64,000 nt of DNA, taken from positions 1,984,001-2,048,000 of the forward strand of contig OZ251518.1 of assembly GCA_965242965.1 (NCBI GenBank), in the 5' to 3' direction. A model generated the notes under the pieces. It had not been told where the DNA came from and made no database searches. It worked only from the letters and a program-made list of their open reading frames with translations. This document shows positions 659-26,197 of this stretch, in pieces. The DNA comes from Candidatus Poribacteria bacterium (GTDB lineage Bacteria > Poribacteria > WGA-4E > WGA-3G). Made by a program: the position numbers and the translations under genes. The first letter of the stretch is position 1; every line of letters starts with the position of its first letter.

Positions 659-665
659 ATTTTGC

Positions 666-695
666 TTGCAATGCAATGCCAAAATATGCTATATT
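666..695 (+). promoter_or_regulatory. sigma70-like promoter, probably for a leaderless mRNA
   Basis: TTGCAA-18-TATATT with extended TG, 7 nt before ATG 703. Confidence 0.5.
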
Positions 696-702
696 AAAAA
701 CT

Positions 703-3700
703 ATGCCAACGCTCAACCTCAAACCAACGCATAAGGCGATAACTGCCTATTACGCCGCCCTTGAGCGGTATCAACAACTCGGTGTCTCCCACGAAACCGC
801 CGTGCGCGCCGCTTTTCAGGCACTTTTGGAGGCATGCGCGCGACAACGGCATTGGACGCTGGTTTGTGAATATACGTTAAACATCGGTAGGAGAGACCTC
901 CCGGTCTCGACAGGTTCGGTATCGGGACAAGGATGTCCCTCCTACCCAGACACCGGTAGGAGAGACCTCCCGGTCTCGATGCATTCGCGGGGGACAGGCC
1001 CCCGCGCTACGGGGCACAACAACACGATTCGTCTTGACGGTGCCCTACTTGACGCATACAGTCTCCCGCGCGGCACTTGGGAAGCAAAAGGCGTTCACGG
1101 AAACCTCCGCGCCGAAATTGAGAAGAAATTCGACGCGGGATATCCACAGGACAACATCCTCTTCCAAACGCCGGAACGCGCGATTTTGTATCAAAACGGC
1201 AGAGAAGTAATGGACGCGGACATCACCGAACCGGCTCCCCTCGTCGCTGTCCTCAAGGCATTCTTCGGCTATGAGCGCGCACACGCCGCCGAGTGGGAAG
1301 CCGCTGTCACCGCCTTCAGGGCCCTCGTCCCCGAACTGAAACGGGAAGCCAAGGCACTCATTCAGACGCGCCACCGCGAGAGTGCGCGCTTCCGCAACGC
1401 TTTCGCCGATTTCCATCAACTCTGCCAAAACGCTATTCACCCCGCACTCGCCGAAACCGCCGTGGAAGAGATGCTGCTCCAGCACCTCTTAACAGAACGC
1501 ACGTTTCGCACCGTCTTTGATAATCCTGACTTCGCACAGCGCAACATCATCGCTCGCGAAATAGAGAAGGTTATCAACGCGCTCATTGAGAATGCGTATA
1601 GCCGCGATGCATTCCTCGAAAACCTGAAGCCGTTCTATCGGGAAATCGAACGTGAAGCAGCCACCCTCGTCGATTTCTCACAAAAACAGCACTTCCTGAA
1701 TACCGTCTACGAACAGTTTTTTCAAGGGGATTCCGCCGATGTTGCCGATACGCACGGTATCGTTTATACGCCGCAACCCATCGTCGATTTCATGGTGAAG
1801 AGCGTCCAGCATCTCCTCAAAACCGAGTTCGACCGTTCCCTCTCCGATGAAGGCGTTCACATCATCGATGCGTTTGTCGGCACAGGGAACTTCATCGTCC
1901 GCCTGATGCGCGAGATAGAACCACTCAAACTCAACGCCAAATACCGTTCAGAATTGTGGTGCAACGAAGTGCTCCTCTTGCCTTACTACATCGCTAGCCT
2001 CAACATCGAACACGAATTTTACGAATCCACCGGTGAATATCTCCCCTTTGAAGGCATCTCCCTCGTGGATACGTTTGAATTAGCGGAGGACCGGCAGTTA
2101 TCCCTTTTAACGCAGGAGAACACGGCGCGCGTCGAAAAACAGAAGGCATCGCCGATGTTCGTCGTCATCGGCAATCCACCGTATAACGTCGGGCAGGCGA
2201 ATGAGCATGATCAGAATCAAAACCGAAAGTATGCGGCGTTGGATAAACTCATCCAAGAGACATACGCGAAGGACTCGTTAGCGACGAACAAAAAATCGCT
2301 CTATGATCTCTACGTGAAGGCACTCAAATGGGCATCGGAACGCATCGGCGGGGAGGGTATCGTCGCGCTTGTCACGAACAACAGCTTCCTCGATGCGAAG
2401 GCATTTGACGGCATGCGCAAACATCTCGCCCAAGATTTCGACCGGCTCTATATCGTAGACCTTGGCGGCAATGCCCGAAAAGACACCCTCGTCTCCGATG
2501 CCAGCGTCTTCGGCATCCAAGTCGGCGTGAGTATCAATTTCTTCGTCAAAGGGCCGTCTTCCACCGTAGCGCGGGGGCATGAAACGGAGGCGGCCTCGCA
2601 TACCGTAGCGCGGGGGCCTGTCCCCCGCGATCGTTCCATCGACGATAACGCCCACATCTTCTATTACCGAACCGACGACACCTGGAACAAAAACCAAAAA
2701 TTCGACTTCCTCGCGCAAACCGAACACATCGGCAACGTCCCATGGCAAACCCTGCAACCCGACACGCGCCACACCTGGCTCACCGAAGGACTCAACACCG
2801 AATTTTTGACGTTCATCCCGATGGGCACCAAAACCGCCAGACGCGCCAAAGGCAACGTTGAAGATGTCATTTTCCAACTCTATAGCAACGGCGTGAACAC
2901 CACTCGCGATGCGTGGACTTGCAACTTTAACCGAAACATTCTCGCTGAAAACATGCAAGTGATGCATGATTTCTACAATTCGCAGTTGCGCGAATGGAAC
3001 GGCACCGAAGACAAATCCAGGCTCACGGTCGATGATTTTGTCACCTATGCGGATACAAAAATCAAATGGACAATGGATTTGAGGGCAAAGTTGAGGCGCG
3101 GGCGCGTCGCTGAATACGATGAGAGCAAAATTCGGCACTCGCTTTACCGGCCCTTCACCAAAACGCATCTCTACTTCGACCGGCACTTCAATGACAGGGT
3201 GTATCGGTTTCCTTTTATCTTTCCCACGAGAGAGACAGAAGCGGAAAATCGGGTGATTTGCGTGAGTCAATCCAATAGGCAAGATTTCGCGGTGCTAGCA
3301 TCCAAATTCATCCCGAACAGTGCGCTTTACATAGAGCCGCTGCAGGCTTTTCCCTTCTACGCCTACGACGAAGACGGCACGAATCGCCGAGAAAACATCA
3401 CCGATTGGGCGTTGCAAAACTTCCGCGCGCATTACGGCGACGATACCATCACCAAATGGGAGATTTTCCATTATACTTATGGGCTTCTGCATCATCCTGC
3501 GTATCGCGAACGTTACGCCGCCGATCTCAAGCGCGACTTGCCGCATATCCCTTATGTTGAAGACTTCTGGGCATTTGCGAATGCCGGCGCGCAACTCGCA
3601 GAACTGCATGTCAATTATGAATCACAACCGCAATATGAATTGACATCTATCACGAAGGAACGCGCGCTCGATTTGCGCGTGGAACGGATGAAGTTATCCA

Positions 3701-3969
3701 AAGACCGGACATCGCTCATCTACAATGAATCCCTGACGTTAGAGGGCATTCCGCCGGAGGTTTTTGAGTATCGGTTGGGTAAACGTTCGGCATTAGAGTG
3801 GGTGCTGGATCAGTACCGGGTCAAAACAGACGATCGGAGTCAAATCACCAACTCCCCGAACGATGCGGAGTCCCCGCAGGGAATTGTAGATCTCATCGGT
3901 TCGGTAATTACGGTAAGTTTAGAAACGCAGGCGATTGTGTCGGGGTTGCCCCCATTCCCGTTCCCGTAG
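703..3969 (+). CDS. Type ISP-like restriction-modification enzyme (nuclease, N6-adenine MTase, target recognition domain; no helicase domain)
   Basis: IRLDG...WEAK PD-(D/E)XK-like motif, GIVYTPQPIVDFMV, motif I DAFVGTGNF, motif IV GNPPY, C-terminal YRPFTK...LPHIP...Y.LG.RSALEWV typical of the LlaBIII-type C-terminal domain; start moved to 703. Confidence 0.85.
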   Translation: MPTLNLKPTHKAITAYYAALERYQQLGVSHETAVRAAFQALLEACARQRHWTLVCEYTLNIGRRDLPVSTGSVSGQGCPSYPDTGRRDLPVSMHSRGTGPRATGHNNTIRLDGALLDAYSLPRGTWEAKGVHGNLRAEIEKKFDAGYPQDNILFQTPERAILYQNGREVMDADITEPAPLVAVLKAFFGYERAHAAEWEAAVTAFRALVPELKREAKALIQTRHRESARFRNAFADFHQLCQNAIHPALAETAVEEMLLQHLLTERTFRTVFDNPDFAQRNIIAREIEKVINALIENAYSRDAFLENLKPFYREIEREAATLVDFSQKQHFLNTVYEQFFQGDSADVADTHGIVYTPQPIVDFMVKSVQHLLKTEFDRSLSDEGVHIIDAFVGTGNFIVRLMREIEPLKLNAKYRSELWCNEVLLLPYYIASLNIEHEFYESTGEYLPFEGISLVDTFELAEDRQLSLLTQENTARVEKQKASPMFVVIGNPPYNVGQANEHDQNQNRKYAALDKLIQETYAKDSLATNKKSLYDLYVKALKWASERIGGEGIVALVTNNSFLDAKAFDGMRKHLAQDFDRLYIVDLGGNARKDTLVSDASVFGIQVGVSINFFVKGPSSTVARGHETEAASHTVARGPVPRDRSIDDNAHIFYYRTDDTWNKNQKFDFLAQTEHIGNVPWQTLQPDTRHTWLTEGLNTEFLTFIPMGTKTARRAKGNVEDVIFQLYSNGVNTTRDAWTCNFNRNILAENMQVMHDFYNSQLREWNGTEDKSRLTVDDFVTYADTKIKWTMDLRAKLRRGRVAEYDESKIRHSLYRPFTKTHLYFDRHFNDRVYRFPFIFPTRETEAENRVICVSQSNRQDFAVLASKFIPNSALYIEPLQAFPFYAYDEDGTNRRENITDWALQNFRAHYGDDTITKWEIFHYTYGLLHHPAYRERYAADLKRDLPHIPYVEDFWAFANAGAQLAELHVNYESQPQYELTSITKERALDLRVERMKLSKDRTSLIYNESLTLEGIPPEVFEYRLGKRSALEWVLDQYRVKTDDRSQITNSPNDAESPQGIVDLIGSVITVSLETQAIVSGLPPFPFP
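886..1011. repeat. In-frame cluster of four REP-like hairpins inside the R-M gene
   Basis: GTAGGAGAGACCTCCCGGTCTCGA x2, inverted GTAGGAGGGACATCCTTGTCCCGAT, inverted GTAGCGCGGGGGCCTGTCCCCCGCGA. Confidence 0.9.
2563..2635. repeat. In-frame REP-like hairpins inside the R-M gene
   Basis: Truncated and full GTAGCGCGGGGGCCTGTCCCCCGCGA, translated TVARG...TVARGPVPRDRS. Confidence 0.9.
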
Positions 3970-8570: not shown

Positions 8571-8590
8571 CGGTTCATCCTTGTTCTCAT

Positions 8591-8947
8591 CGTAGGGCGG
8601 GGGCCTGTCCCTCATCGAGCGATCGCGGGGGACAGGCCCCCGCGCTACGGTTTGCAAGGCAGCCTCCCTTTCCCCGTAGGGCGAGGGCCTGTCCCTCGCC
8701 ATGCGTGAAGGGGAGACCTCCTCACCTCTGTAGGTCAGGAGTGCCTGCTCCTGAACCGTTCGGGAGCGGGCGCTCCCGAACTACAGAGGTGGGCCCGATG
8801 CGCCCCTGCCCTCCCTTTTCTATCGGCCGTGCCTCGCGCAACCCAACGATCGCGGGGGACAGGCCCCCGCGCTACGGTATCGGGACGGTTTCTCGGCAGC
8901 AGAACTGCCCCCCCCTCACCGTAGGGCGAGGGCCTGTCCCTCGCCAT
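8591..8947. repeat. Intergenic REP mosaic
   Basis: Five CCTGT-loop hairpins and an inverted pair of GCCN-loop hairpins (8730..8784). Confidence 0.9.
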
Positions 8948-8970
8948 GCCACGGATTAACAAACGCAACT

Positions 8971-10045: not shown

Positions 10046-10522
10046 TTACTTGTGCCGCGATTCAATTCGCGCGACAGCGTCCTTCGCGCCTTCGCGCACC
10101 AAGGTGGATACGTCGTATTGCGAGAGGTATCTCAGTTTGTCAAATCCTTCGGAACCATTCACTTCAATTTTGCCGAGGGCGACGGCGACGAAATAACGGA
10201 CATCCGCGTCCTCATCGTCTAGCGCGTCCAGCAGTGCCTCGATATCCATTTGCGTGGCCAGGTCGCGTTCGTCATCGCCGATGTTAATCAAGGCTTGCGC
10301 GGCGATGCGCCGTGAATGAATGTCGCCGTAGCGTAGCGATGCGAGTAGCCCACTCGTCGCCGTCGTGGGGAGCACCGTGAGATTATCCCAATCGCAATCG
10401 TGGCAGAACCATGAATCTTCGGCGAGATTCTGGACGTTCACACTGCCGCAAGAGGGGCATTCCTCAAATACCGTTTCACCGATAGGCGGGATGCGTAACC
10501 CCGCTTTTTGTTTCTGACTCAT
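10046..10522 (-). CDS. Zinc-ribbon + HEAT-repeat protein
   Basis: CPSC...CHDC, then ALLDALDDEDADVRYFVAVALGKI HEAT/PBS-lyase repeats; ATGA overlap with upstream gene. Confidence 0.75.
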   Translation of the reverse strand: MSQKQKAGLRIPPIGETVFEECPSCGSVNVQNLAEDSWFCHDCDWDNLTVLPTTATSGLLASLRYGDIHSRRIAAQALINIGDDERDLATQMDIEALLDALDDEDADVRYFVAVALGKIEVNGSEGFDKLRYLSQYDVSTLVREGAKDAVARIESRHK

Positions 10523-10893
10523 GAGGGTTCGTCTTCCTCCAATTCCGGTAAGTCTCGCCAGATTTCAGGGCCTTCCGGCTTGAAATTAATGGTGGCGATG
10601 AACTGCATGCCGTGATAGAAGTTGATTTTGAACTTCCCGCCGCCGAAATGCTGCTTGAGGTAGTCCAAGGGGGTTTCAATCAGCGGTCCCATTTCGTCCG
10701 CGTGGTAAAAAGCGAGGGGTTTAAAGCGCACCGTATTGCCGACCGGTTCCTGAACGAGGAGGCGCGCCGATGTCGCAGGGAACAGCACTTTAAACGCGCC
10801 CCACAGGTCATCGACTGTCGGGTTTGGCTTGCCTAATCGCTTTTTGAAGTCGTTCTCCAAGTATTCCGAGAACGTGTTAAATACCCATTCCAT
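10519..10893 (-). CDS. Hypothetical protein, 124 aa
   Basis: AAAGGAG RBS, ATG, translationally coupled to the HEAT-repeat gene. Confidence 0.7.
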   Translation of the reverse strand: MEWVFNTFSEYLENDFKKRLGKPNPTVDDLWGAFKVLFPATSARLLVQEPVGNTVRFKPLAFYHADEMGPLIETPLDYLKQHFGGGKFKINFYHGMQFIATINFKPEGPEIWRDLPELEEDEPS

Positions 10894-10985
10894 GATGGAA
10901 CTCCTTTGTCGCGCTAGAGCGGTGCCTTCAAGAAGTCCTTCCAGTCAAAATGAGGCAGAGGGAACTCCTCCGTGGCTTTGCATTG

Positions 10986-11543
10986 TCAGAACGTGGCGGC
11001 TTTCTCGAAGAATTCGATATCGACACGTTCGATCTGCGCGGCGCGGGCATTCTCGGCGACACGCTGGACAACCATCTCGCGCACGAACGGAATCGGGATG
11101 CGCTTCACGCGATGCACAACTTCCTCCGTGCAAGGCACGTTCGTGTTGTCAAGAAAAGGACCATCGTGCATCGGCATTTCATCCGGATGTTCGCACGTTT
11201 CCGGCACCAATTGTTGCAAACGCATGGAGACGTAGTCGGTTACCCACTGCTTTAATGCCGCCGCGCTATCTGCAGCAGAAGCGTCCGTCTCATTTGCGAG
11301 CATCGAGACCGGGAGGTCTCTCCTACCCGCCGCGCTGTTTGCAGGAGGCGCGTTTCCCTGGGCTTGACTCCCTGTGCCGTTGTCGGTGGAAGAGCCCTCG
11401 CTGTTGTGATTGTCCTGCGCGTCGCTTGATAAACGCGCGTTCCAATCTAATTTCTGATTGATGCTGACGAGGAGGCTCTCCACGTTGGTGAGGCGTTCCT
11501 CAACGTCTGTCAGCCGTTCTTGTAAGTGAATGTTTTCGCTCAT
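10986..11543 (-). CDS. Coiled-coil + C-terminal PCP_red-like domain protein
   Basis: GGAGG RBS; CTEEVVHRVKRIPIPFVREMVVQRVAENARAAQIERVD resembles the PCP_red (BchB C-terminal) pattern. Confidence 0.7.
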   Translation of the reverse strand: MSENIHLQERLTDVEERLTNVESLLVSINQKLDWNARLSSDAQDNHNSEGSSTDNGTGSQAQGNAPPANSAAGRRDLPVSMLANETDASAADSAAALKQWVTDYVSMRLQQLVPETCEHPDEMPMHDGPFLDNTNVPCTEEVVHRVKRIPIPFVREMVVQRVAENARAAQIERVDIEFFEKAATF

Positions 11544-11596
11544 ATTTCCTCCGTGTGCCTCAAATGAGGCTTTTTATTTCCAAAACCGCACCTTTC

Positions 11597-11883
11597 CGTA
11601 GGGCGAGGGCCTGTCCCTCGCCATGCAACGATCGCGGGGGACAGGCCCCCGCACTACGTTACAAACAGGCCCGCCTTTCCAAAACAGGCCCACCTTTCCG
11701 TAGGGCGAGGGCCTGTCCCTCGCCGTGCTTGCGGGGGACAGGCCCCCGCCCTACGTTCAAAAATCGAGACCAGGAGGTCTCTCCTGCCTCGCTATGCAAC
11801 GATCGCGGGGGACAGGCCCCCGCACTACGGGCCAAATAGGGCAAGATACGTTCCAAAATCGAGACCGGGAGGTCTCTCCTACC
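11597..11883. repeat. Intergenic REP mosaic
   Basis: Five CCTGT-loop and two GAGACC-type hairpins. Confidence 0.9.
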
Positions 11884-11895
11884 GCACCATGCTAC

Positions 11896-13200
11896 TTAAC
11901 GCCGCGGCGCGAATGACGGCATGCCTGTCTTATCAAACCGCTTTTTAACCGCCTTCATGAGTTCCGGCGTAATTTCCCGATGTCCATGTTCGCGGGCATA
12001 TTTTTCGACGCTTTTGATAACCATCCCTCTTGCGAAGGAAGGCACGCGCTTTAACCGCTTCTGTGCCGCCGCATTCCATTGCAAATCGTAAGCCGGCTCA
12101 CTCGCGAACGCCGTAGCGTTTGCAAATTGGACAGGCGGCCGTTGCTGCCCCGGTTGATATTCGCACGATGCATCGGCGGCGAGGTAATTACCGGTGTCGG
12201 CGTAGGCACGCGCTCGGCATCCGCCGCAAACTTCTCGGAATTCACACGCGCCGCATTTCCCCTCAAGCAGGGTGCGGTCCCGCAATTCCTGAAACGTCTC
12301 CGCTTCATTCCAAAGTTTAACGAAACTTTCCGATTTCAGGTTACCGACGCTTACCGGCAGATAGGGACACGGTGTCAACTCTCCTTCCGGCGAGATTCGG
12401 CAGTAATAGATACCACACGGGCATGTGCCGCTCGGATAGCCTTGCAGGAAGGCGGAGTCCGACTGCTGTTCATAAATGACGCGTTTATAGTGCGGCGCGC
12501 ACTTCGCGGCGATGAGCATCTTCCCACTGTAGTCCGCCTGCAGTTGGAACATTGTCTCCAGCATTTTCTCATATTGCGCTGCAGACAAATCCATCACTGT
12601 CTTCCCTCTTCCCGTCCGCACGAGAAAGTAGAGGTTCAGCACCTTCGCGCCGAGTTGATAAGCGAACTCGACAATCCGCGGGATTTCATCGTAATTCCAC
12701 TGCGTCACCGAGGTTTGGACGAGGAAGTCAAGTTTTGCGCGTTTGAGTGCTTCAACCCCGTTCATCGTCGCCTTCCACGCGCCTTCCATCCCGCGAAACC
12801 TATCGTGGTTAGTGGGTTGAATAGAATCAATGCTGAGCCCTGCGCCGGTAACGCCGTGCCGTTGCATCTGTTCAACGACTTCGTCGTTCAGTAGCACACC
12901 GTTCGTGCCCATCACGACGAGGAACCCGGTATCGGCGGCGTATTTAGAAATCTCCAAAATATCGGGACGCAACAGCGGTTCGCCGCCGGTGAGGATGAGC
13001 AGGATGTTCGGGTTAATCTCGGCTATCTCGTCAATAATGCGGAAACATTGCGCTTGGCTGAGCTCCGCCTCGCGGTGATAGCCTTGCGGGAACTCGTCCG
13101 TATCCACGAACCCCGCGGGTAGGTAGCAGTGCATGCATTTCAGGTTACATAACCGCGTGATATTCCACGAAACCGCCTGAACTTTGGTTTGATTTTCCAT
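11896..13200 (-). CDS. Radical SAM/SPASM protein (AhbC/AhbD/NirJ-like) with C-terminal PCP_red domain
   Basis: WNITRLCNLKCMHCY, TGGEPLLR, CPCG..YCRI..G..TPC, CGACEF...CGGCRARA, tail WNAAAQKRLKRVPSFARGMVIKSVEKYA. Confidence 0.85.
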   Translation of the reverse strand: MENQTKVQAVSWNITRLCNLKCMHCYLPAGFVDTDEFPQGYHREAELSQAQCFRIIDEIAEINPNILLILTGGEPLLRPDILEISKYAADTGFLVVMGTNGVLLNDEVVEQMQRHGVTGAGLSIDSIQPTNHDRFRGMEGAWKATMNGVEALKRAKLDFLVQTSVTQWNYDEIPRIVEFAYQLGAKVLNLYFLVRTGRGKTVMDLSAAQYEKMLETMFQLQADYSGKMLIAAKCAPHYKRVIYEQQSDSAFLQGYPSGTCPCGIYYCRISPEGELTPCPYLPVSVGNLKSESFVKLWNEAETFQELRDRTLLEGKCGACEFREVCGGCRARAYADTGNYLAADASCEYQPGQQRPPVQFANATAFASEPAYDLQWNAAAQKRLKRVPSFARGMVIKSVEKYAREHGHREITPELMKAVKKRFDKTGMPSFAPRR

Positions 13201-13201
13201 T

Positions 13202-13654
13202 TTATCCTTTAAATCGTAAAGCGATGCCGAAAACAATTAAGCCTGCGATGAGCGTCAAACCGCCGAAGAGATTGACAGTTGCGCTCGGAGCGCGCTGTCC
13301 GTTTTCTTCTTCAAGGTGCCGCCGGTATAGTGCACTGTGAAGTCCCCAAAATAGTGCCATGCCTCCGAACGCCGCGAGTTTCACAACAAAGTTTAGCATA
13401 TAATCCACTTTGAATGCCATATCATTATTCCATGCGACGATAAAGAACACCATCGCGCCTGTTGTGAGGAGGACATGAATCATGAGACGTATCCAGCGTC
13501 GGAGGCGATTATGGATTGCCAGTAGCGCGTCGTTCGGCAAGTGTCGCCGCACAATCGGCATAGCGATGAAGGTAGAGAAAACTACGCCGCCGAACCAGAC
13601 TATCGCTGCGATGAGGTGTATGCATCGGATGCAGAGTTCTACGATTGTGCGCAT
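13202..13654 (-). CDS. Four-TM membrane protein, CopD/DUF4149-like
   Basis: IHLIAAIVWFGG motif, four hydrophobic helices. Confidence 0.65.
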   Translation of the reverse strand: MRTIVELCIRCIHLIAAIVWFGGVVFSTFIAMPIVRRHLPNDALLAIHNRLRRWIRLMIHVLLTTGAMVFFIVAWNNDMAFKVDYMLNFVVKLAAFGGMALFWGLHSALYRRHLEEENGQRAPSATVNLFGGLTLIAGLIVFGIALRFKG

Positions 13655-13726
13655 TTTCGATTTAAGCCTTGTTAAAGAGATTCACGATTTTGTCGGGTTA
13701 ATGATAACCTTTTCGGGGTGCAGAAG

Positions 13727-14608
13727 TCAACCTTGCGTTTTGCCCAGTTCAGCCTTCCCTGTAACGAGTGGGCAAATCCCTTCAAATTCAAGGATAGTCG
13801 CGGGGCGAATCGAAAAGTACTGATGTCTTCGTCCTTTAAACCGCACCTTTAACGCGGGGCCCTTACGAAAGGTTTGGTATCGAGGGTGTGGATATCCGCC
13901 ATTTAAGTTAACCGGTATATCCTCTTCCCGCAGTTCCAAATCAAGTTGGAGGATTTCTTCGACGGTATAGGACAACTTCAGGTAAAGCACGGCTACCAAG
14001 CGGGCAAACTTCTGGAATAGGACTGGCGTTTCGCGAAACGCTTGATAGAGTTGAGGGAACGGTGATTCATGAATTGCTAGGCCATTCTCGTGTTCAAGTG
14101 AGATGCCGTTCCGCACCCGGTATTCAAATAGCCATGGGCTGGCGGCCCCGAGTTTCTCGTCCAGAAGAATCCGCCGTGCTCGGAGTTCGGCGAGCTGGTC
14201 ACCGGTTAATTCCCCGAATCTCTTCTCATGATGCAAGCCCTGCGCCTTGCTCCTTTTCAGACTAACCTCCCAACCAGAAGAGGTTTCGGAAACTGCTTGA
14301 GGCGCAACCCACGCGGCGTAGTTGCGGTGCGCAAAAGCGAAATCTCCATCAGTGCCTGTTTTTAAGGAATGCAGAAATCCGCACTCTTCGGGTGATTCCG
14401 GCAGAAGTTTGAGAGAAATTTCGGATGAGGTCGCGTGTGCTTCTTGCACCCGAACAAAATACTGGCTCCGTTTTGTTGGACGGAGGAGCACAAATTCGCA
14501 AGGTTCGCTCTCCAGCGGCACAGTAGCCGTGAGGGCACCGCCACTCGGTTGCGGAATGGCCCCTTGATACCTTTCCATAAAAGTGAGTTCATAAATGTGT
14601 TGCGGCAT
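13727..14608 (-). CDS. Hypothetical protein, 293 aa
   Basis: Long ORF with GGAGG RBS; no family recognised. Confidence 0.65.
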   Translation of the reverse strand: MPQHIYELTFMERYQGAIPQPSGGALTATVPLESEPCEFVLLRPTKRSQYFVRVQEAHATSSEISLKLLPESPEECGFLHSLKTGTDGDFAFAHRNYAAWVAPQAVSETSSGWEVSLKRSKAQGLHHEKRFGELTGDQLAELRARRILLDEKLGAASPWLFEYRVRNGISLEHENGLAIHESPFPQLYQAFRETPVLFQKFARLVAVLYLKLSYTVEEILQLDLELREEDIPVNLNGGYPHPRYQTFRKGPALKVRFKGRRHQYFSIRPATILEFEGICPLVTGKAELGKTQG

Positions 14609-14640
14609 TTTTAGCCTCCAAGATTACGCGAGCGTCTCCG

Positions 14641-15369
14641 CTAGGGTGTAGTTGACAGCGGTGCGCGAGAGTCAATAATCCGAAGCAAGTGACTTGCGAA
14701 GATGATGAGTTCTGCAGCTTCATCGGCTGCAACGGAGACATTCCGATGGCTATGCGGGTTTTTGTAAAGGCCGATTGCGCCGGCGAACAGTTGGTGCGTG
14801 GCATCCTTTTCCGCCTGTGGTTGGTTCGCGTCTGTCAGCGGTCCGTCCTGAGCGTGGAAGGCTTGTCGCATCAAGTGAACGCCGTAATCTGTATCAGAAT
14901 AACCACCTGCATCCCGAACGGCGACTTCCACCTCTTTGAACGCTAGGAGGACAGCCGTGCCGTAATTACCCCGTGAGAAGGCATACCATACCTCTGTGGC
15001 CAACGCTGGATGCAGTAGGGATTTTGGTAATAGATTTGCGAGACGATAGGCATCCAGGTCTCTAGCATTTTCTATGCGGAGTCCCCGTCTCGTAATGAAA
15101 ATCCACTCTCCTTGACTACCAGGGCTAGGGGCGATTAAACCTTCTTTTTCAAGCCACATCCACCCTTCCATGAGATCACGACTAATGCTCTTCTGATGCT
15201 CCTGGGGATAGTCTGCTACCGTATGCGGCATACTGAAGTTATAGCGATTGAGTTCGGGACTTCCCCCTGGGAGGGATTTCAGATATTCCAAAATGACTCC
15301 TGCTAATTCCTCCGGTTCAAGGTTTAGCAAGAGTTCGTGGTCTGGAATAAGTTCGTAGATAGATGGCAT
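14641..15369 (-). CDS. TIGR02391 family protein
   Basis: AFKEVEVAVR, G..LMRQAF, LFAGAIGLYKNPHSH signature. Confidence 0.85.
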   Translation of the reverse strand: MPSIYELIPDHELLLNLEPEELAGVILEYLKSLPGGSPELNRYNFSMPHTVADYPQEHQKSISRDLMEGWMWLEKEGLIAPSPGSQGEWIFITRRGLRIENARDLDAYRLANLLPKSLLHPALATEVWYAFSRGNYGTAVLLAFKEVEVAVRDAGGYSDTDYGVHLMRQAFHAQDGPLTDANQPQAEKDATHQLFAGAIGLYKNPHSHRNVSVAADEAAELIIFASHLLRIIDSRAPLSTTP

Positions 15370-15422
15370 CGTTTACCTCAAAGCGAGTTTCATCGCGCGG
15401 GGTGGGCGCATCAACCGATTTC

Positions 15423-17123
15423 TCACTGCGGTGCCAGCATCGCCTTGATGTCTGCCGGCAGCTGAGCATCGATTATCCGCTCAAAGTCTGCAACGCTCTT
15501 GTAGAGGGTGTGAAACAACTCAGAGACATCCAATCCTCTTCTTTCGGCGGCAACCAAGTCCGCTTTGGCTTTGTTCCAATTTTGCAGGCACAGCCAAACG
15601 AGAGCCCTGTTGAAATAAACCAGGGTATCGTGCGGATTTATCCCTAGTGCCGTAGTATAGTCTTCAAGAGCCAGGTCGAATTCCCCCGTGCAGAAGTAAG
15701 CGGCACCGCGATTGCAATAAGCCTTGTTGGTGTTATCGGAACTCAGTTCAATCGCTTTCGTATAATCGGCTATCGCCCGATCGAACGCGCGGTTTTTGCC
15801 GTAAGCAACGCCCCTGTCGTAATAGGCATCCGCGAAATCGGCATTGAGTTTTATCGCCTTGCTCAAGTCTGCGATGGCTTTGTCAGCGTCGCCTGTTTTA
15901 CCATAAAGGTTGCCGCGATTGTAGTAGGCCTTAGCATAATCTGGCTTGAGTTCTATTGCCGTGTTAAAGTCTGCGATCGCCTTTTCTGATTCGCCGGTTT
16001 TGTGATAAACGCTCCCGCGGCTGTTATAGGCTTCGGCGAAACGAGAATCGAGTTCTATCGCCATGTTAAGGTCTTTGAGAGCCCTATCAAAGCTGCCTTC
16101 ATTGCCATAGACATCGCCGCGATTGTGATAGGCATCGGCGTAATCGGGTTTAAGCGTAAGCGCGGTGTTAAAATCACCGATAGCGTTGTTAATTTCGCTC
16201 TTGCGCCTATAAACGTTGCCGCGATTATTATAGGCGATAAAATCATCGGGGTTGAGTTCTATCGCGGTGTTGAAATCGTTGAGAGCCTTGTCAAACTCAC
16301 CTATGTTGCAGTAAGCGATGCCGCGATTGTTATATCCCTCGGCACAACTGGGATTGAGGGCAAGTGCTGTGTTAAAGTTTTCAATAGCCCTATCAACGTT
16401 GCCTTTTCCGCTATAGGCATCACCGCGATTGACATAGGGAATTTCAAAATCAGGTGCCAGTTTTACCGCGATGTTGAAATCCGCGATAGCAAGGTCAAAC
16501 TTACCTTTGTAGAGGTAAGCAACCCCGCGGTTATTATACGCATCGGCATGTTCTGGGTTCAGATCAATTGCATGCGAATAGGCTTCTATCGCCATTTCTA
16601 TTTCCCTAAGCATCCCGAGAAGAAAGTTCCCGTGCTGGAACACCCACTCAAGTAGCGTTTCCTTTTCCGCTGCGTTAGAGGCACGAGCCCGCGTTTCGTT
16701 AACGGCCTTTCGGAGCCCATCCACCACGTTCTGCCAACCTTTGCTCTCAGGATGCCATTCGTTAATCGGCACGCCTTTGTCAGGAAGAGCCTCAAAATTC
16801 TGGAGTTGATGATTGAGCCAATCACAACTCTCAAGGATGATGGGAATGACTCTCATTTCCAACCCTAGTGCTTCGGCTAATTCCTTATTGCAGTTCTTAG
16901 ATGCAAGGCTATCAGCAGAGACAAGGTAGATGAGCAAGTCTGAATCGGCAAGGTGTTTGAGAATGTTTTCCTGACTCGCTTTGTCCCCCGCGGTGAGATC
17001 ACCATCGTGCCAAGTTATGAGTTCGTTTTGCTTCCCCATCACAGCAAGCCGCCTTCTCAATTCGTCCTTTGCTTCAGTGTTTCTATGCGAATAGGCAATG
17101 AAGCCTTTCAGTGGTTTGCACAC
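15423..17123 (-). CDS. TIR domain + tetratricopeptide repeat protein
   Basis: FIAYSH...WHDGDL.AG...LVSADSLASKNCNKEL TIR_2 pattern; about 11 TPRs (AYNNRG..Y...A.ADF..AI.L.P); GTG start 17123 after GGAGG. Confidence 0.85.
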   Translation of the reverse strand: MCKPLKGFIAYSHRNTEAKDELRRRLAVMGKQNELITWHDGDLTAGDKASQENILKHLADSDLLIYLVSADSLASKNCNKELAEALGLEMRVIPIILESCDWLNHQLQNFEALPDKGVPINEWHPESKGWQNVVDGLRKAVNETRARASNAAEKETLLEWVFQHGNFLLGMLREIEMAIEAYSHAIDLNPEHADAYNNRGVAYLYKGKFDLAIADFNIAVKLAPDFEIPYVNRGDAYSGKGNVDRAIENFNTALALNPSCAEGYNNRGIAYCNIGEFDKALNDFNTAIELNPDDFIAYNNRGNVYRRKSEINNAIGDFNTALTLKPDYADAYHNRGDVYGNEGSFDRALKDLNMAIELDSRFAEAYNSRGSVYHKTGESEKAIADFNTAIELKPDYAKAYYNRGNLYGKTGDADKAIADLSKAIKLNADFADAYYDRGVAYGKNRAFDRAIADYTKAIELSSDNTNKAYCNRGAAYFCTGEFDLALEDYTTALGINPHDTLVYFNRALVWLCLQNWNKAKADLVAAERRGLDVSELFHTLYKSVADFERIIDAQLPADIKAMLAPQ

Positions 17124-17288
17124 CCTTTCTTTCCTCCACGATGCAGGTTTTCTGTGTGATGATAACATATCTTGCGAACAAATTTCAATCAAATTCGCAG
17201 AATTTCCAAATAGGCCATCATTTGCGAAAAAAACGCTCAACGACATCCCAAACATGTCTCCTTCTAAGGCTTAAAGAAGCATTTAACT

Positions 17289-17652
17289 GAGGGTGTTTCA
17301 TAATTCGTTCAACGTCGCGGTGACAGGCCCCTTCTACGGTGAAAAAAACGCCGCCCTTCACGTAGGGCGGTGGGAAAACCTGTCCCTCCCCATGCTTGAT
17401 TGCCCCGTTCACCGTAGGGCGAGGGCCTGTCCCTCGCCATGCCTAAGGTCTGTAAGACCTTAATGTCTATAGCATCCTGCATCGCAGCGCACCCTAAGGT
17501 CTGTAGGACCTTAATGTGCAGCGGCTCACCTCGCTGCGGCTTGATTAAGGGCCTAGCGGACCTTGAAAACAGTGGCAAATCTGTTTTTCCATAGACATGT
17601 AGGTGCTAAAGCACCTAAAGAGGCATCCATAACGGAGTTATGAAATACCCTC
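17289..17652. mobile_element. MITE-like cassette with REP cargo
   Basis: TIRs GAGGGTGTTTCATAA / TTATGAAATACCCTC; flanks ATTTAACT / AATTAACC. Confidence 0.7.
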
Positions 17653-17662
17653 AATTAACCCC

Positions 17663-17920
17663 CTATCGGATACGTCTCATGTACTCGTCGTGTTTTCCAA
17701 TCCAAAACCAGACGAGAGTTCCCTTTCGTTCAAAAGCCAACATCCGATAGGCACTGCTGATTCGTGCAACCTACAGTGTCTTGACTTTTTTCAGATGCAG
17801 AGATGGGTGCCGTGGATTTTCAGACAGGAATTCGACTTTCCTGATAGCACGTTTTTGAACGTTTCGTGGAAGTCTGTCATAACATTCCCAAAAATCGTCG
17901 TGCAGGCTATGTTTCTTCAT
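17663..17920 (-). pseudogene. RelE/ParE-like toxin with an in-frame TAG at codon 50
   Basis: Manual translation MKKHSLHDDFWECYDRLPRNVQKRA...NPRHPSLHLKKVKTL*VARISSAYRML...WFWIGKHDEY; ATGA overlap with antitoxin. Confidence 0.8.
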
Positions 17921-18366
17921 AACACTTCGTGCGTATAAGCGCGAAAATCAGAAAGCCTTGGGGCTCTTCCGGCGTTTGCGATTTTAAATCCTGTCAAGGC
18001 AGGCTTGGAAAATTGACCCACAGACTCCAAGACATCTGATGATGAATACTGAGCGAGAAACGAAGCCACATCCTCGCATTTGCCCGCATCAAAATCGGCA
18101 ATGACGCGCTCGGCGATAGCATCAAATTTCCCGGCATCCACGTCTACCTCAAGTTGTTTATCCCAAGCATCCGCATGCGCTGCCAATGCCTCCAAAAGCC
18201 TGACTTCCAGCGTTTGCACTAAGGCTTCTTTCGTTTTTTCGCGGCACTTCACCTCAGGGAATTCTTGGATCAGCCCACTCCACTCGCTACCATTCTCCCA
18301 AATATTGGCAGTATAGAGCTCGCCATCCTCCAGAGTTTGGATTTCGTGAGTATAAACGCGTGTCAT
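17917..18366 (-). CDS. Putative antitoxin (HicB-like N-terminus + AWDKQ.E.D..AGK.D motif)
   Basis: AAGGAG RBS; WSGLIQEFPEVKCREKTKEAL; directly upstream of and coupled to the toxin. Confidence 0.65.
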   Translation of the reverse strand: MTRVYTHEIQTLEDGELYTANIWENGSEWSGLIQEFPEVKCREKTKEALVQTLEVRLLEALAAHADAWDKQLEVDVDAGKFDAIAERVIADFDAGKCEDVASFLAQYSSSDVLESVGQFSKPALTGFKIANAGRAPRLSDFRAYTHEVL

Positions 18367-18376
18367 GCGTGACTCC

Positions 18377-18913
18377 TTAAAACTGCGAGGGGAAACTCCC
18401 ACGCGCAGCATCCATCACTTCCGCAGTTATCTCGGCATAGCCGTTGTCTTTCGCGAACGTTTCAATACCCATCTTTGCCATCGGACGGACAAAACTCGGA
18501 ATCCGCTCCAAGCGAGATAATGCCTCCGCTGACCAGGTAGGACCGGCGGGTTCCGCCTTCGTCGGCTCTTCTTCCTCAAACGCGCCTGCGATGACAGACG
18601 TAAACGGACACTTGCCACCCTCAGCGGTGCCCGACGCGTTTGCATCTTGGGCAGCAGGCGTGGCGGGCATCGGCTCGCGTTTGGCGGTTCCGAGCTGCGA
18701 ACGCACCATCTGCATCGGTTGCGCCGCCTCGGCACTGCCGCCTAACTGCAAGTCCAAGGATTTCAGCATTTGGGTTTCCCACGGGTTGAGGAACATAGCG
18801 AATTCCATGAAGCAATCCGGACATTCAAACACGGCGGTGACGGAACCTTGCTCAGGACGCATCACGTCTTTGAATTTCATCGCTGTATCGCATTCTCGGC
18901 ATAAGAATTTCAT
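18377..18913 (-). CDS. Zinc-finger (CxxC...CxxC) + PCP_red domain protein
   Basis: MKFLCREC...FECPDC, GKCPF, WSAEALSRLERIPSFVRPMAKMGIETFA. Confidence 0.8.
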   Translation of the reverse strand: MKFLCRECDTAMKFKDVMRPEQGSVTAVFECPDCFMEFAMFLNPWETQMLKSLDLQLGGSAEAAQPMQMVRSQLGTAKREPMPATPAAQDANASGTAEGGKCPFTSVIAGAFEEEEPTKAEPAGPTWSAEALSRLERIPSFVRPMAKMGIETFAKDNGYAEITAEVMDAARGSFPSQF

Positions 18914-19788
18914 CGTTGAATCTCCTTAAAGAAATGTTGAATTTGCGCAGCAACTGCTGTGAGTGCTACGCTTGCGGGAGTGTTCGGGTATTCACGCAAA
19001 TAAGGCACCCCCTTGTCACCACAATAGGCAAGTCTCGGGTCGAAGGGAATACTACCGAGTGTCCCTTCAATGCCCGACTCCTCCGTGGAAAAGAGGGGTT
19101 CCTTTTCGCCACAATGCTGGCAGATATGAAACGCCATGTTCTCGACAACGCCGATAACCGGAACGTTCAGAATCTGTCGCGCCATCGCCAACGATTTTTT
19201 GACGATGAATTGCGACACCTCGGACGGAATCGTCACGACGATAACGCCGCCGAGGTTTGGGATCAGTTCAACAACGTTTGGAATCCTGTCTGTGCCTGGC
19301 GGCAGATCGAGCAGGAGATAGTCTAATTCTCCCCAGTCGGTATCACCGATGAACTCTCGGAGCGCGCCGACTTCCATCGTGGCACGCCAAGTGTAGGCAT
19401 CTTTCTGGGTGGGCGCATTCCACAGAACGGGTGCCTCATCCTCGGCGAGGAGTAAGTCCATCGAGATAACCTTGATGCCGAGGGCGTTGACTGCCGGCGT
19501 GACACCCGCAGGCGAATATTCAAGCGCGGCATTTCGCACCCCCATCATTTTCGCGATTGACGGCCCGTTGATGTCAGCGTCAACGACACCGACAGTTTCG
19601 CCTTGTAGCGCAAGTGCAACAGCAAGGTTCGAGGTAATCGCACTCTTGCCGACACCGCCTTTCCCGCTCAGAATCGCGACGGTGTGTTTGACATCGGCAA
19701 GCCGTTTTTGCAGCCGATTGAACTGGCCGGCAACTTGTCCAATAATGTTGGAACCTGCATCATCCGGGAGTTCTTTGTAGGTTTTCAT
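18910..19788 (-). CDS. mrp: Mrp/ApbC/NBP35 Fe-S cluster carrier ATPase
   Basis: SGKGGVGKS, DADINGPS, LDYLLLDLPPGT, GVVENM..HICQHC; start moved to 19788. Confidence 0.9.
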   Translation of the reverse strand: MKTYKELPDDAGSNIIGQVAGQFNRLQKRLADVKHTVAILSGKGGVGKSAITSNLAVALALQGETVGVVDADINGPSIAKMMGVRNAALEYSPAGVTPAVNALGIKVISMDLLLAEDEAPVLWNAPTQKDAYTWRATMEVGALREFIGDTDWGELDYLLLDLPPGTDRIPNVVELIPNLGGVIVVTIPSEVSQFIVKKSLAMARQILNVPVIGVVENMAFHICQHCGEKEPLFSTEESGIEGTLGSIPFDPRLAYCGDKGVPYLREYPNTPASVALTAVAAQIQHFFKEIQR

Positions 19789-19795
19789 AACCATA

Positions 19796-19824
19796 ATTAT
19801 AGCAAATTTTACTGCAAATGTCAA
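19796..19824 (-). promoter_or_regulatory. Consensus sigma70 promoter, probably leaderless mrp transcript
   Basis: TTGACA-17-TATAAT with extended TG, 7 nt before ATG 19788. Confidence 0.75.
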
Positions 19825-21004: not shown

Positions 21005-21578
21005 GAGGGTGTTTCATATTTCGATGCGTTCGGTAGGAGAGCCCTCTAGTCTCGATGTTCCCGTAGGGCGGGGGACAGGCCCCCGCCCTACGAGGAAAGG
21101 AAGGCGTTATTTTTATCGTAGCGCGGGGGCCTGTCCCCCGCGATCGTTGGAGTGCGCGTGCACGCACGATGGCGGGGGCCTGTCCCTCGCCCTACGAGGA
21201 AAGGAAGGCGTTATTTATCGTAGCGCGGGGGCCTGTCCCCCGCGAGTTCCATCGTTCCGATGTGTGTTTCCCCCGCTGTAGTTTGTGATCACCTGATCAC
21301 AAACAGTTCAGGATCAGGCGATCCTGACTTACAGGGGTGATGCGGTCTGGCAGCAAAACGATGGCGAGGGACAGGCCCTCGCCCTACGGTGAAGTGCCGT
21401 TTTTATCGTAGCGCGGGGGCCTGTCCCCCGCGAGTTCCATCGTCACGATGTGTTTCCCCCGCTGTAGTTTGTGCTCGCCTGATCACAAACAGGTCAGGAT
21501 CAGGCGATTCTTACCTACAGAGGTGGGCTTGCATTGAGACCGGGAGGTCTCTCCTTCGGGGATTTATGAAATACCCTC
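21005..21578. mobile_element. MITE-like cassette with REP cargo
   Basis: TIRs GAGGGTGTTTCATA / TATGAAATACCCTC; flanks ATTTAAGGT / AGTTAAGGT (8/9). Confidence 0.75.
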
Positions 21579-25231: not shown

Positions 25232-26197
25232 TTACAGAATCCTCAATTCATCTTCCTCGCCGCTTGCCTCCAACACCTCTTCCAATTTTGTCGCGACGGT
25301 GCCGAACGCAGCGGATTGCGGCGAATCAGGATGCGCCGCGACGATAGGCACTCCCAAATCGCCGGCTGTGCAGACTTCTGCATCCAGCGGAATTTGTCCC
25401 AACAGCGAAACGCCGAACCGTTCGCTCATCGTTTTCCCGCCGTCTGCCCGGAAAATCTCCGTTTTTTCGTTGCAGTGCGGACAGAGGAAATAACTCATAT
25501 TTTCGATGATGCCCAAGATAGGCACACCGAGGCGTTCAAACATTGCCACGCCACGCCGCACATCCGCAAGGGCAACATCCTGTGGTGTCGTGACGATGAT
25601 TGCGCCGGTGAGCGGCATCGCCTGCGTTAACGAAAGCGCGACATCACCTGTCCCCGGCGGCAAATCGATGATGAGGTAATCCAATTCACCCCAATCCACA
25701 TCGCTGAGGAACTGACGGATAGCACTGTGCAACATCGGACCGCGCCAGATCATCGCCTGCTCTTCCGGCACCATGAACCCGATCGACATCAGTTTAATGT
25801 CGTGCCGGACGAGAGGGACAAGTTTGCGTTGCGGACTCGTCTGCGGCCGTTCTTGGATGCCCATCATCGTCGGGATGCTGGGACCGTAAGCATCCGCGTC
25901 CATTAAGCCGACGGCGGCACCCGCATTCGCTAGCGAGATAGCGAGGTTCGTCGCGACGGTTGATTTCCCAACGCCGCCCTTTCCACTCGCCACGGCAATC
26001 TTGAACCGCACGTTCGGCAACGCGATGTTCTGTTGCTGCGGCTGCTGTTGCGGTTGCTGCGGCTGCTGTTGTGGCTGCTGGGGTTTCCTGCCAGAAATCT
26101 GCGCGCCGCTGATAACCTTCAGTTCGGGATGCGGATTCGCCGCTGTCTCTGGTTTCGGCTGCGGCTTTTTTTCTTCGCCTTTTCTAAAAAATTTCAT
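25232..26197 (-). CDS. mrp: Mrp/ApbC Fe-S cluster carrier ATPase with Q/P-rich N-terminus
   Basis: ASGKGGVGKST, DAYGPS, WRGPM, DLPPGTGD, CPHC. Confidence 0.92.
   Translation of the reverse strand: MKFFRKGEEKKPQPKPETAANPHPELKVISGAQISGRKPQQPQQQPQQPQQQPQQQNIALPNVRFKIAVASGKGGVGKSTVATNLAISLANAGAAVGLMDADAYGPSIPTMMGIQERPQTSPQRKLVPLVRHDIKLMSIGFMVPEEQAMIWRGPMLHSAIRQFLSDVDWGELDYLIIDLPPGTGDVALSLTQAMPLTGAIIVTTPQDVALADVRRGVAMFERLGVPILGIIENMSYFLCPHCNEKTEIFRADGGKTMSERFGVSLLGQIPLDAEVCTAGDLGVPIVAAHPDSPQSAAFGTVATKLEEVLEASGEEDELRIL

Follow-up and report, generated by a model that had tools for sequence, protein, structure and literature searches.

In the genome of a sponge symbiont, Candidatus Poribacteria bacterium (assembly GCA_965242965.1; 5.7 Mb, 2 contigs), seven co-oriented minus-strand genes encode a radical S-adenosylmethionine (SAM) enzyme related to AhbD and fused to a PCP_red domain, an Mrp-type protein, a small zinc-ribbon/PCP_red protein, a CopD-like membrane protein and three further proteins that are treated here as lineage-specific. 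The genes lie at positions 10046–19788 of the window, that is, of the whole 64,000-nucleotide stretch that was analysed (contig OZ251518.1, positions 1,984,001 to 2,048,000 of the forward strand); coordinates given without a contig or locus handle are window positions. An earlier note on this DNA, made from the letters alone, had named the seven genes with the block at 13727–18366 set aside, and ORF listing (open reading frames) and family scans recovered all of them at or near the positions read for them at first. The note had also proposed a dedicated set around a tetrapyrrole-type radical SAM enzyme, which was supported by a gene neighbourhood conserved across 40 Poribacteria-type loci and in other phyla. 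With roughly even confidence, the module is read here as an AhbD-type, oxygen-independent haem b synthase with dedicated accessory proteins that would serve respiration.

The radical SAM enzyme and its relatives

The gene of the radical SAM/SPASM-PCP_red enzyme (11896–13200, minus strand) encodes 434 aa, counted from Met13 of a 446-aa ORF. In Pfam scans the product matched Radical_SAM (83.1 bits), SPASM (33 bits) and PCP_red (58.5 bits). Among 83 NCBIfam families the highest scores were those of AhbD (TIGR04545, 319.5 bits) and NirJ2 (TIGR04055, 307.4 bits); AhbC scored 164 bits and peptide-maturase families at most 125 bits. The description of the enzyme as AhbC/D-like was therefore kept for its AhbD half, now AhbD/NirJ2-like, and given up for AhbC, in line with the placement of its clade as sister to AhbD (below).

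The CX3CX2C motif is C30-x3-C34-x2-C37, and the SPASM region (C246–C358) reads CX25CX17CX37CX2CX5CX2CX17C, which is the eight-cysteine motif of the AhbD type. For AhbD of methanogens and sulfate reducers, PMC10452713 gives the SPASM motif as CX20-33CX17CX36-37CX2CX5CX2CX17-35C. By that definition, all 12 aligned relatives and 28 of the 32 clade representatives have the full AhbD-type SPASM motif with matching spacing. Sequence searches found no solved AhbD structure, the nearest solved chains being PqqE (E 7e-19) and SkfB.

An exhaustive search of 1.84 billion representative sequences was run with the core only. PCP_red, called with a purpose-built hidden Markov model (HMM), was present in 35 of the 150 best matches, including 25 of the top 31. 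A tree (LG+G4, quick search) was computed from 110 near-full-length cores, taken from the 150 matches, 7 extra fused sequences and the window enzyme after 48 rows with fewer than 300 core positions had been dropped; its root rests on one AhbC-like row. Thirty PCP_red-fused rows grouped with 3 rows without detected PCP_red (SH-aLRT 97%), and this clade was sister (83%) to a 49-row clade that contained all rows with at least 450 AhbD bits together with TIGR04053 rows. NirJ2-type rows branched outside both. By scores and tree, the window enzyme is AhbD/NirJ2-like and belongs to a separate clade sister to canonical AhbD. The next-best matches to the AhbD model in this genome scored 49, 45 and 39 bits, and the AhbD-model search returned neither a second AhbD-like gene nor an AhbC/NirJ-like paralogue.

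Haem pathway genes in the genome and the phylum

The genes hemE, hemH and hemY are clustered at C1:2913482-2918664 in this genome. HemF was not found in any of 5 genomes, this one included, and two HemN-like genes scored 182 and 172 bits, under the cut-off of 325 bits. The only Chlor_dismutase-family protein of the genome matched half of the profile (positions 92–187) with 67.5 bits and scored 46.2 and 46.5 bits against the HemQ equivalogs, whose cut-offs are 235 and 253 bits; on profile scores, this Poribacteria Cld-like protein is not a canonical ChdC. Because a canonical ChdC, HemF, a HemN above cut-off and any further AhbD-like gene are all missing from the genome, the radical SAM enzyme is the strongest candidate here for the final step towards haem b, an assignment about which we are evenly divided.

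A similar picture was seen across 61 genomes of the phylum. In families f1 to f3, all 54 genomes, including this one, have the enzyme and only a half-profile Cld-like protein. Full-length ChdC (190 bits) is found in the two f5 genomes, which have neither the fused enzyme nor PCP_red, and in one f6 genome there is an AhbD closer to the canonical type (425 bits), again without PCP_red. The AhbD equivalog cut-off was reached in none of the 61 genomes, and PF08369 (PCP_red) was absent from all five phylum genomes that lack the fused enzyme. Since the 61 genomes are kin, the presence and absence of these genes across f1 to f6 is a pattern and not a statistic. Mutual exclusion of ChdC and the fused enzyme was considered as a general rule and rejected: it holds in the phylum sample and fails in other phyla.

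Gene array in Poribacteria

An alignment of 12 fused enzymes was used to scan a genome collection for loci; of 597 candidate stretches, 592 were confirmed, and 80 loci were kept, 40 of the Poribacteria type and 40 from other phyla. The radical SAM enzyme is present at every locus by design of the search, and neighbours were counted on all ORFs, since gene calling erred in some GC-rich loci.

In all 40 Poribacteria-type loci the CopD-like gene adjoins the radical SAM gene. Downstream follow the coil-PCP_red gene (39/40), the 124-aa gene (33/40) and the zinc-ribbon/HEAT gene (33/40), and mrp and the small zinc-ribbon/PCP_red gene lie upstream in 23 of the 40. This linkage is far beyond chance. 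In the other 17 loci, mrp and the small-protein gene lie outside the available upstream flank, which is about 10 kb in 13 of them, and in at least 2 of the genomes concerned the small protein is encoded elsewhere on the same contig.

A gene for a protein with Usp and PCP_red domains stands upstream of mrp, in one co-linear array, in 23 of the 40 Poribacteria-type loci. In 17 loci sco1 and cox genes come before it, and in 18 a PQQ-propeller gene comes after it. In the present genome it lies 2.3 Mb from the window, directly after coxB-coxA-ctaA-ctaB-coxC-sco1, with a bd-like CydA homologue about 8 kb upstream of this cox to Usp-PCP_red island. Because relatives have Usp-PCP_red upstream of mrp in a single array, the window holds the distal half of a Poribacteria array that is split in this genome; in another sub-clade the array is split one gene further on.

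The array also runs past the zinc-ribbon/HEAT gene into a divergent Chlor_dismutase-like gene in 7 of 40 Poribacteria-type loci, in 6 of them by way of a DUF420 gene. This divergent Chlor_dismutase-family protein is found at G000:C1:4692231-4692536 (L008 1477-2211) and at L038 12792-14103, and is conserved in Poribacteria families f1 to f4.

Mrp and the small zinc-ribbon/PCP_red protein

The mrp gene (18910–19788, minus strand) encodes 292 aa from Met36 of a 327-aa ORF, Met36 being where orthologues begin. Its product matched PF10609 with 233.3 bits (cut-off 27.1) and has the deviant Walker A motif SGKGGVGKS; the Walker A motif and a CxxC (C223/C226) are invariant in 10 orthologues. Two equivalog cut-offs were missed, with 165.5 against 348 bits for ApbC and 231.1 against 450 bits for MrpORP. 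A second Mrp/ApbC gene of the housekeeping type (PF10609, 349.6 bits) is located at 25232–26197 on the minus strand, about 5 kb from the module mrp.

The small protein (18377–18913, minus strand; 178 aa) carries a four-cysteine zinc ribbon (Cys5, Cys8, Cys31, Cys34), the sequence G-K-C102-P-F in a disordered linker and a C-terminal PCP_red domain. In an alignment of 11 sequences from at least 5 phyla, C5, C31 and C34 were invariant, C8 was kept in 10 of 11 and CPF in 9 of 11. An AlphaFold2 model has a three-stranded zinc ribbon (strands in residues 13–42), the disordered linker and a confident three-helix domain. The protein is labelled only 'PCP reductase family protein' or 'hypothetical protein' at NCBI.

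The two genes overlap by 4 nt at their start and stop codons, and both are present at the same loci, namely 23 of the 40 of the Poribacteria type and 7 of the 40 from other phyla. A complex of two Mrp chains and the small protein was predicted with a score of 0.57 against 0.02 for the best control. Of 157 solved complexes, 116 passed the mark used, as did 2 of 215 mismatched pairs; only 18 of the 157 passed with a score of 0.60 or less, the range into which both passing mismatches fell. Contact agreement between runs was at least 76% and the predicted local distance difference test score (pLDDT) of the partner at least 61, from custom alignments and a three-chain set-up unlike those of the calibration. 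Because this weak complex prediction goes together with strict co-occurrence and translational coupling, it is plausible that Mrp forms an Mrp-adaptor pair with the small protein. For the proposal that PCP_red acts as a docking tag, the same single prediction is the evidence at hand, and we regard the tag function as slightly favoured by it.

A sigma-70-like promoter match (TTGACA, 17 nt, TATAAT, with TG) at 19796–19824 on the minus strand ends 8 nt before the mrp start codon. It agrees at 12 of 12 hexamer positions, as a consensus match only, and 13 promoter-like sites were counted in the whole region against 8.6 +/- 3.5 in shuffles.

The PCP_red domain and its carriers

Three PCP_red tails had been proposed at the outset. 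Against the Pfam gathering cut-off of PF08369 (32.5 bits), the tails of the small protein (61.6 bits) and the radical SAM enzyme (58.5 bits) are above it and that of the 185-aa coil protein (21.2 bits, E 3e-4) is below; the third tail nevertheless gained support when the alignment of the 185-aa family (8 orthologues) was compared with the small-protein family, the whole domain being aligned over 50 columns (hhalign probability 71.4%, E 3.6e-5). Genome-wide, PF08369 occurs in only 4 proteins, namely these three and the Usp-PCP_red protein, which is 663 aa long and has two Usp domains, three PCP_red domains and a rubredoxin-like cysteine pair.

In the AlphaFold2 model of the small protein, the PCP_red helices span residues 129–137, 143–157 and 164–173 (pLDDT about 90). 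The top Foldseek matches of the model were 2kru, 2l09 and 2ynm_D, with probability 1.0 and E values of 0.004–0.04, above 0.001; the 2kru match had a TM score of 0.79 on the target and 2ynm_D a root-mean-square deviation of 1.0 A over 49 columns. Of the NCBIfam BchB models, only the last 55–70 positions matched, with 44 to 67 bits against cut-offs of at least 490, and nitrogenase-like domains were not present. The absence of photosynthesis genes from the window, already remarked on in the earlier note, was borne out for all such genes including those of dark-operative protochlorophyllide oxidoreductase (DPOR), and the set is unrelated to photosynthesis.

The membrane protein and the lineage-specific genes

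The CopD-like membrane protein (13202–13654, minus strand; 150 aa) scored 29.3 bits against PF05425 (CopD), below the cut-off of 32.1, and 20.2 bits against DUF4149; its homologue at locus L054 scored 31.4 bits against CopD. The model has four long helices, and His13, Trp20 and Gly22 in helix 1 are invariant in the Poribacteria and L054 set. A Nitrospira DUF4149-like protein of 169 aa is homologous to it (hhalign probability 96.8%, E 2.6e-10). Its nearest neighbours in a protein language model were CopD, DUF2214, DUF4149, Urate_ox_N and UPF0093 clusters (0.88–0.92). Comparison of the model with 48,161 chains gave only generic helical bundles, the best Z of 12.7 being in the range common for bundles. 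Identity with HemJ was considered and dropped: PF03653 had no match in the genome at E <=1 or in the Pfam scan of the protein.

The coil-PCP_red protein (10986–11543, minus strand; 185 aa) has an N-terminal helical or coiled-coil segment, two invariant cysteines and a divergent PCP_red-like C-terminus in the alignment of 8 orthologues. Its residues ~43–89 form a 47-aa low-complexity insert rich in Ser, Ala, Gly, Asn and Asp, which is absent in 7 aligned orthologues. The 124-aa protein (10519–10893, minus strand) has no Pfam or NCBIfam match, and its Atlas leads are all <0.85; it falls into 44 clusters among 5.8 billion proteins, the named ones being from Poribacteria, and is highly conserved and all but restricted to that phylum. 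Its gene shares a 4-nt start/stop overlap with that of the zinc-ribbon/HEAT protein (10046–10522, minus strand; 158 aa), which matched HEAT_2 with 31.9 bits and has a CxxC...CxxC pattern.

Because none of the 40 other-phylum loci has the coil-PCP_red, 124-aa or zinc-ribbon/HEAT gene (BLAST), the three are treated as lineage-specific additions. A family HMM of the 124-aa protein likewise found nothing in those 40 loci, and the protein was discarded as a general partner. The 124-aa and zinc-ribbon/HEAT genes, listed with the cluster at first, are neighbours of the enzyme gene in Poribacteria-type loci (33/40 each) and in none of the other-phylum loci (0/40).

Occurrence in other phyla

The fused enzyme was also found in Nitrospira and other Nitrospirota, Nitrospinota, Brocadia, Scalindua and Entotheonella, and in Myxococcota, Acidobacteriota (Vicinamibacterales), Binatia, Bipolaricaulia and Anaerolineales. 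Neighbours at the 40 other-phylum loci were counted by all-ORF clustering with Pfam scans of representatives. Usp-PCP_red was near the enzyme in 19 loci, a bd-like CydA in 10, a 240-aa CarboxypepD_reg protein in 10 and a DUF4149-like membrane protein directly after the enzyme in 10, all Nitrospira. Less frequent were a UbiE-type methyltransferase (8/40), mrp and the small protein in the same loci (7/40), a cytochrome c with EB_dh (7/40), a B12-radical SAM gene (7/40), cytochrome b (5/40, with a Rieske gene beside it confirmed in one, L071) and COX3 (1/40). Locus L054 has the full row of Usp-PCP_red, mrp, small protein, CopD-like protein and enzyme; in anammox and many Nitrospira loci the enzyme stands without the small protein nearby.

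In 7 Nitrospira loci the B12-binding radical SAM protein is encoded two genes ahead of the fused enzyme, beside the UbiE-type methyltransferase (L087 5999-7624; L088 5861-7486), and its best match is the slr0320 family (443 bits, cut-off 775). Locus L089, a Binatia record, is symmetrical about position 11,540, the two strands carrying the same genes in mirror order, which is probably an assembly artefact.

The inserted block and other features of the window

Between the small-protein gene and the CopD-like gene lies a block at 13727–18366 (minus strand) that encodes a 149-aa unknown, a TIR+TPR protein (610 aa), a Hypoth_Ymh protein (242 aa) and a 293-aa unknown. The 610-aa protein is a ThsB-like TIR domain (77.8 bits, PADLOC) fused to about 10 TPR repeats. 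Counterparts of the TIR-TPR and 149-aa genes were found in none of the 40 related Poribacteria-type loci and those of the Ymh and 293-aa genes in one (L014), for which reason the block is read as an insertion outside the module; the gap that it occupies is variable, ranging from about 0.5 to 4 kb among relatives. The block may be a defence islet.

An array of REP-like palindromic repeats occupies 11586–11895, between the radical SAM gene and the coil-PCP_red gene. The same element occurs at 8580–8953, 17402–17446 and 21051–21440; its core is GCGAGGGACAGGCCCTCGC, and it fills several intergenic gaps with up to 11 copies. One of the arrays is near the break point of the ancestral gene array upstream of mrp. 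Also in the window and unrelated to the module are a Type ISP restriction-modification enzyme (637–3969, plus strand) and the selenocysteine synthase SelA (60952–62427, minus strand).

Proposed function and alternatives

In the proposed haem b synthase module, whose substrate, partner roles and haem hand-over we infer, the enzyme would most likely convert Fe-coproporphyrin III (coprohaem) to haem b by a SAM-dependent oxidative decarboxylation of the two propionates that needs no oxygen, and so would complete a coproporphyrin-dependent pathway (UroD, CpfC and CgoX being encoded together elsewhere) without a canonical ChdC. Mrp and the zinc-ribbon/PCP_red protein would load or repair the three [4Fe-4S] clusters of the enzyme, or feed it electrons. 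The CopD/DUF4149-like membrane protein would anchor the system and may take up the electrons from the oxidative decarboxylation. PCP_red would be a shared module by which the proteins either hold a tetrapyrrole or recognise one another, and the Usp protein with its three PCP_red domains would link the module to haem-consuming oxidases. The choice left open by the earlier note, cofactor maturation for tetrapyrroles or for Fe-S clusters, would thereby fall on the haem side; pure Fe-S maturation is less likely because of the haem-pathway inventory and the respiratory gene context.

A number of observations weigh against a haem b synthase. The AhbD and NirJ2 cut-offs are both 500 bits and the enzyme scores below each of them, and its position outside the canonical AhbD clade means that the same chemistry is not assured. 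The divergent Cld-like protein could be a real decarboxylase, and the 182-bit HemN-like protein could be a coproporphyrinogen dehydrogenase that went unrecognised. Poribacteria, which have cydA and aa3-type cox genes, respire oxygen, and a radical SAM enzyme, being sensitive to oxygen, is an unusual choice as the only haem synthase of such an organism. Among ten other-phylum genomes with the fused enzyme, another candidate coprohaem decarboxylase is present in seven and neither kind in three. A Brocadia and a Scalinduaceae genome each have a near-canonical AhbD (498 and 497 bits) together with the fused paralogue (335 and 289 bits), and in five other-phylum genomes a full-length Chlor_dismutase-family protein of 128–200 bits is found beside the fused enzyme; that of Nitrospira may be a chlorite dismutase. 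That a paralogue is retained where a working enzyme exists points to another or a more specialised function.

Such a function could, tentatively, be haem tailoring, the main rival reading: the enzyme would act on haem, coprohaem or a different iron tetrapyrrole and so make or trim a modified haem for particular respiratory complexes such as bd-like or aa3 oxidases or EB_dh-type cytochromes, with the PCP_red partners passing the product on. The separation of the fused clade from canonical AhbD agrees with this, as do the near-canonical AhbD in 2 and the full-length Chlor_dismutase-family protein in 5 of the 10 other-phylum genomes, the bd-like CydA (10/40) and cytochrome c/EB_dh (7/40) genes at other-phylum loci, the ctaA/ctaB/cox genes of Poribacteria and the bd-like gene about 8 kb upstream of the cox to Usp-PCP_red island. 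Against it, the motif and the best-scoring families are those of a coprohaem decarboxylase, the genome would be left without any other convincing enzyme for the final haem b step, and we know of no modified haem in these respiratory complexes. The enzyme might otherwise be a SPASM maturase of PCP_red-tagged proteins, introducing for example a thioether or other cross-link at the Cys-Pro-Phe of the small protein, with its own PCP_red as the recognition element. Most SPASM enzymes do modify peptides, the closest solved structures by sequence are PqqE and SkfB, all partners have one small domain in common and CPF is kept in 9 of 11 small proteins; such a maturase is nonetheless unlikely, given about 310–320 bits for AhbD/NirJ2 against at most 125 for peptide maturases, the loss of CPF in 2 of 11 sequences, the anammox and many Nitrospira loci that have no small protein nearby and a context of haem and respiration.

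Least is to be said for an Fe-S or copper maturation or stress set for oxidases, in which the Mrp, CopD-like and Usp proteins would act and the radical SAM enzyme would be a mere client, and we consider this very unlikely. In its favour are the Fe-S carrier role of Mrp/NUBPL proteins, the annotation of CopD-family proteins as copper handlers and the sco1 and cox genes beside the array in 17 of 40 Poribacteria-type loci; yet the PCP_red proteins vanish with the enzyme (PF08369 in 0 of 5 phylum genomes without it), 33 of the 40 other-phylum loci have no mrp near the enzyme and the CopD-like protein is below the CopD cut-off.

Returning to the haem b synthase, a more specific version can be drawn by analogy with DPOR, which we offer as a doubtful extension. 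PCP_red might be a portable docking module that couples clients to a nucleotide-switch ATPase with a bridging [4Fe-4S] cluster, the two-component logic of DPOR (ChlB as client, ChlL as ATPase) being reused for haem synthesis. The clients would be the radical SAM enzyme, the zinc-ribbon adaptor and the Usp regulators, the dedicated Mrp dimer would be the ATP-driven donor of electrons or clusters, and the CopD-like protein would drain electrons into the respiratory chain. If so, an oxygen-sensitive AhbD-type enzyme could work in oxygen-respiring bacteria, and the reuse would extend over Nitrospira, anammox bacteria, Poribacteria and further phyla.

Three ways of completing haem b are known, by protoporphyrin ferrochelatase, by ChdC and by AhbD. 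Should the haem b synthase reading be correct, a fourth arrangement would be added, in which an AhbD-type enzyme on the coproporphyrin route of oxygen respirers is served by a dedicated Fe-S carrier, a membrane partner and PCP_red adaptors, and a gap in the Poribacteria pathway would be filled. It would also bear on the haem supply to the haem-rich respiration of Nitrospira, Nitrospina and anammox bacteria, including their little-understood cytochrome bd-like oxidases, and would give PCP_red its first function outside chlorophyll synthesis.

Comparison with known systems

No paper on the module was found in the literature searched, the papers that mention PF08369 being unrelated by title and abstract, and the module is not mentioned in the available part of PMC5095920, from the AhbD/Nitrospira literature. 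The partner set is unlike anything in the papers searched, and known systems are compared with it here one component at a time.

PCP_red resembles, in sequence and in its three-helix fold, the C-terminal domain of BchB/ChlB of DPOR (2kru, 2ynm chain D) and asr4154 (2l09), a protein that stands alone. In BchB, the C-terminal helices contribute to the cover over the pigment pocket of the adjacent subunit, an arrangement that, if right, would speak for PCP_red as a holder of the tetrapyrrole. In contrast to DPOR, the fusion partners of PCP_red are here a radical SAM enzyme, a zinc ribbon, Usp domains and a coiled-coil protein, not a nitrogenase-like protein. In the portions available of two DPOR preprints, one states that C-terminal tags on BchB disturb activity and the other has no content on the PCP_red domain.

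With HemJ (UPF0093) and CopD, the membrane protein shares four helices and a conserved histidine in the first helix; it differs from HemJ, which binds haem b, in having no PF03653 match, and from CopD in its score below the cut-off. The module Mrp is like the Mrp/ApbC/NBP35/NUBPL carriers in its PF10609 domain, deviant Walker A motif and C-terminal CxxC, its best NCBIfam match being MrpORP of Desulfovibrio, and is distinguished from them by a conserved N-terminus of about 35 residues (MKTY..DGGS), by being a second copy in the genome and by its constant pairing with the small protein. ChdC/HemQ, which is peroxide-dependent, would catalyse the same pathway step as the proposed haem b synthase and, as a full-length protein, is not found with the fused enzyme in any genome of the phylum sample; fold and chemistry are unrelated, and the two co-occur in 4–5 of 10 other-phylum genomes.

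Overall, the module would work most like AhbD, as known from Methanosarcina barkeri and Desulfovibrio vulgaris, while standing outside the curated AhbD family. The two have in common the CX3CX2C motif and the eight-cysteine SPASM spacing, the best-scoring families and sister positions in the tree. They differ in the score (319.5 bits against a cut-off of 500), in the separate clade and in the C-terminal PCP_red, of which relatives have 1–3 copies; in the dedicated Mrp, zinc-ribbon/PCP_red, CopD-like and Usp-PCP_red partners found here; and in the organisms, whose genomes combine coproporphyrin-pathway genes with oxygen respiration, apparently in place of the sirohaem-dependent pathway.

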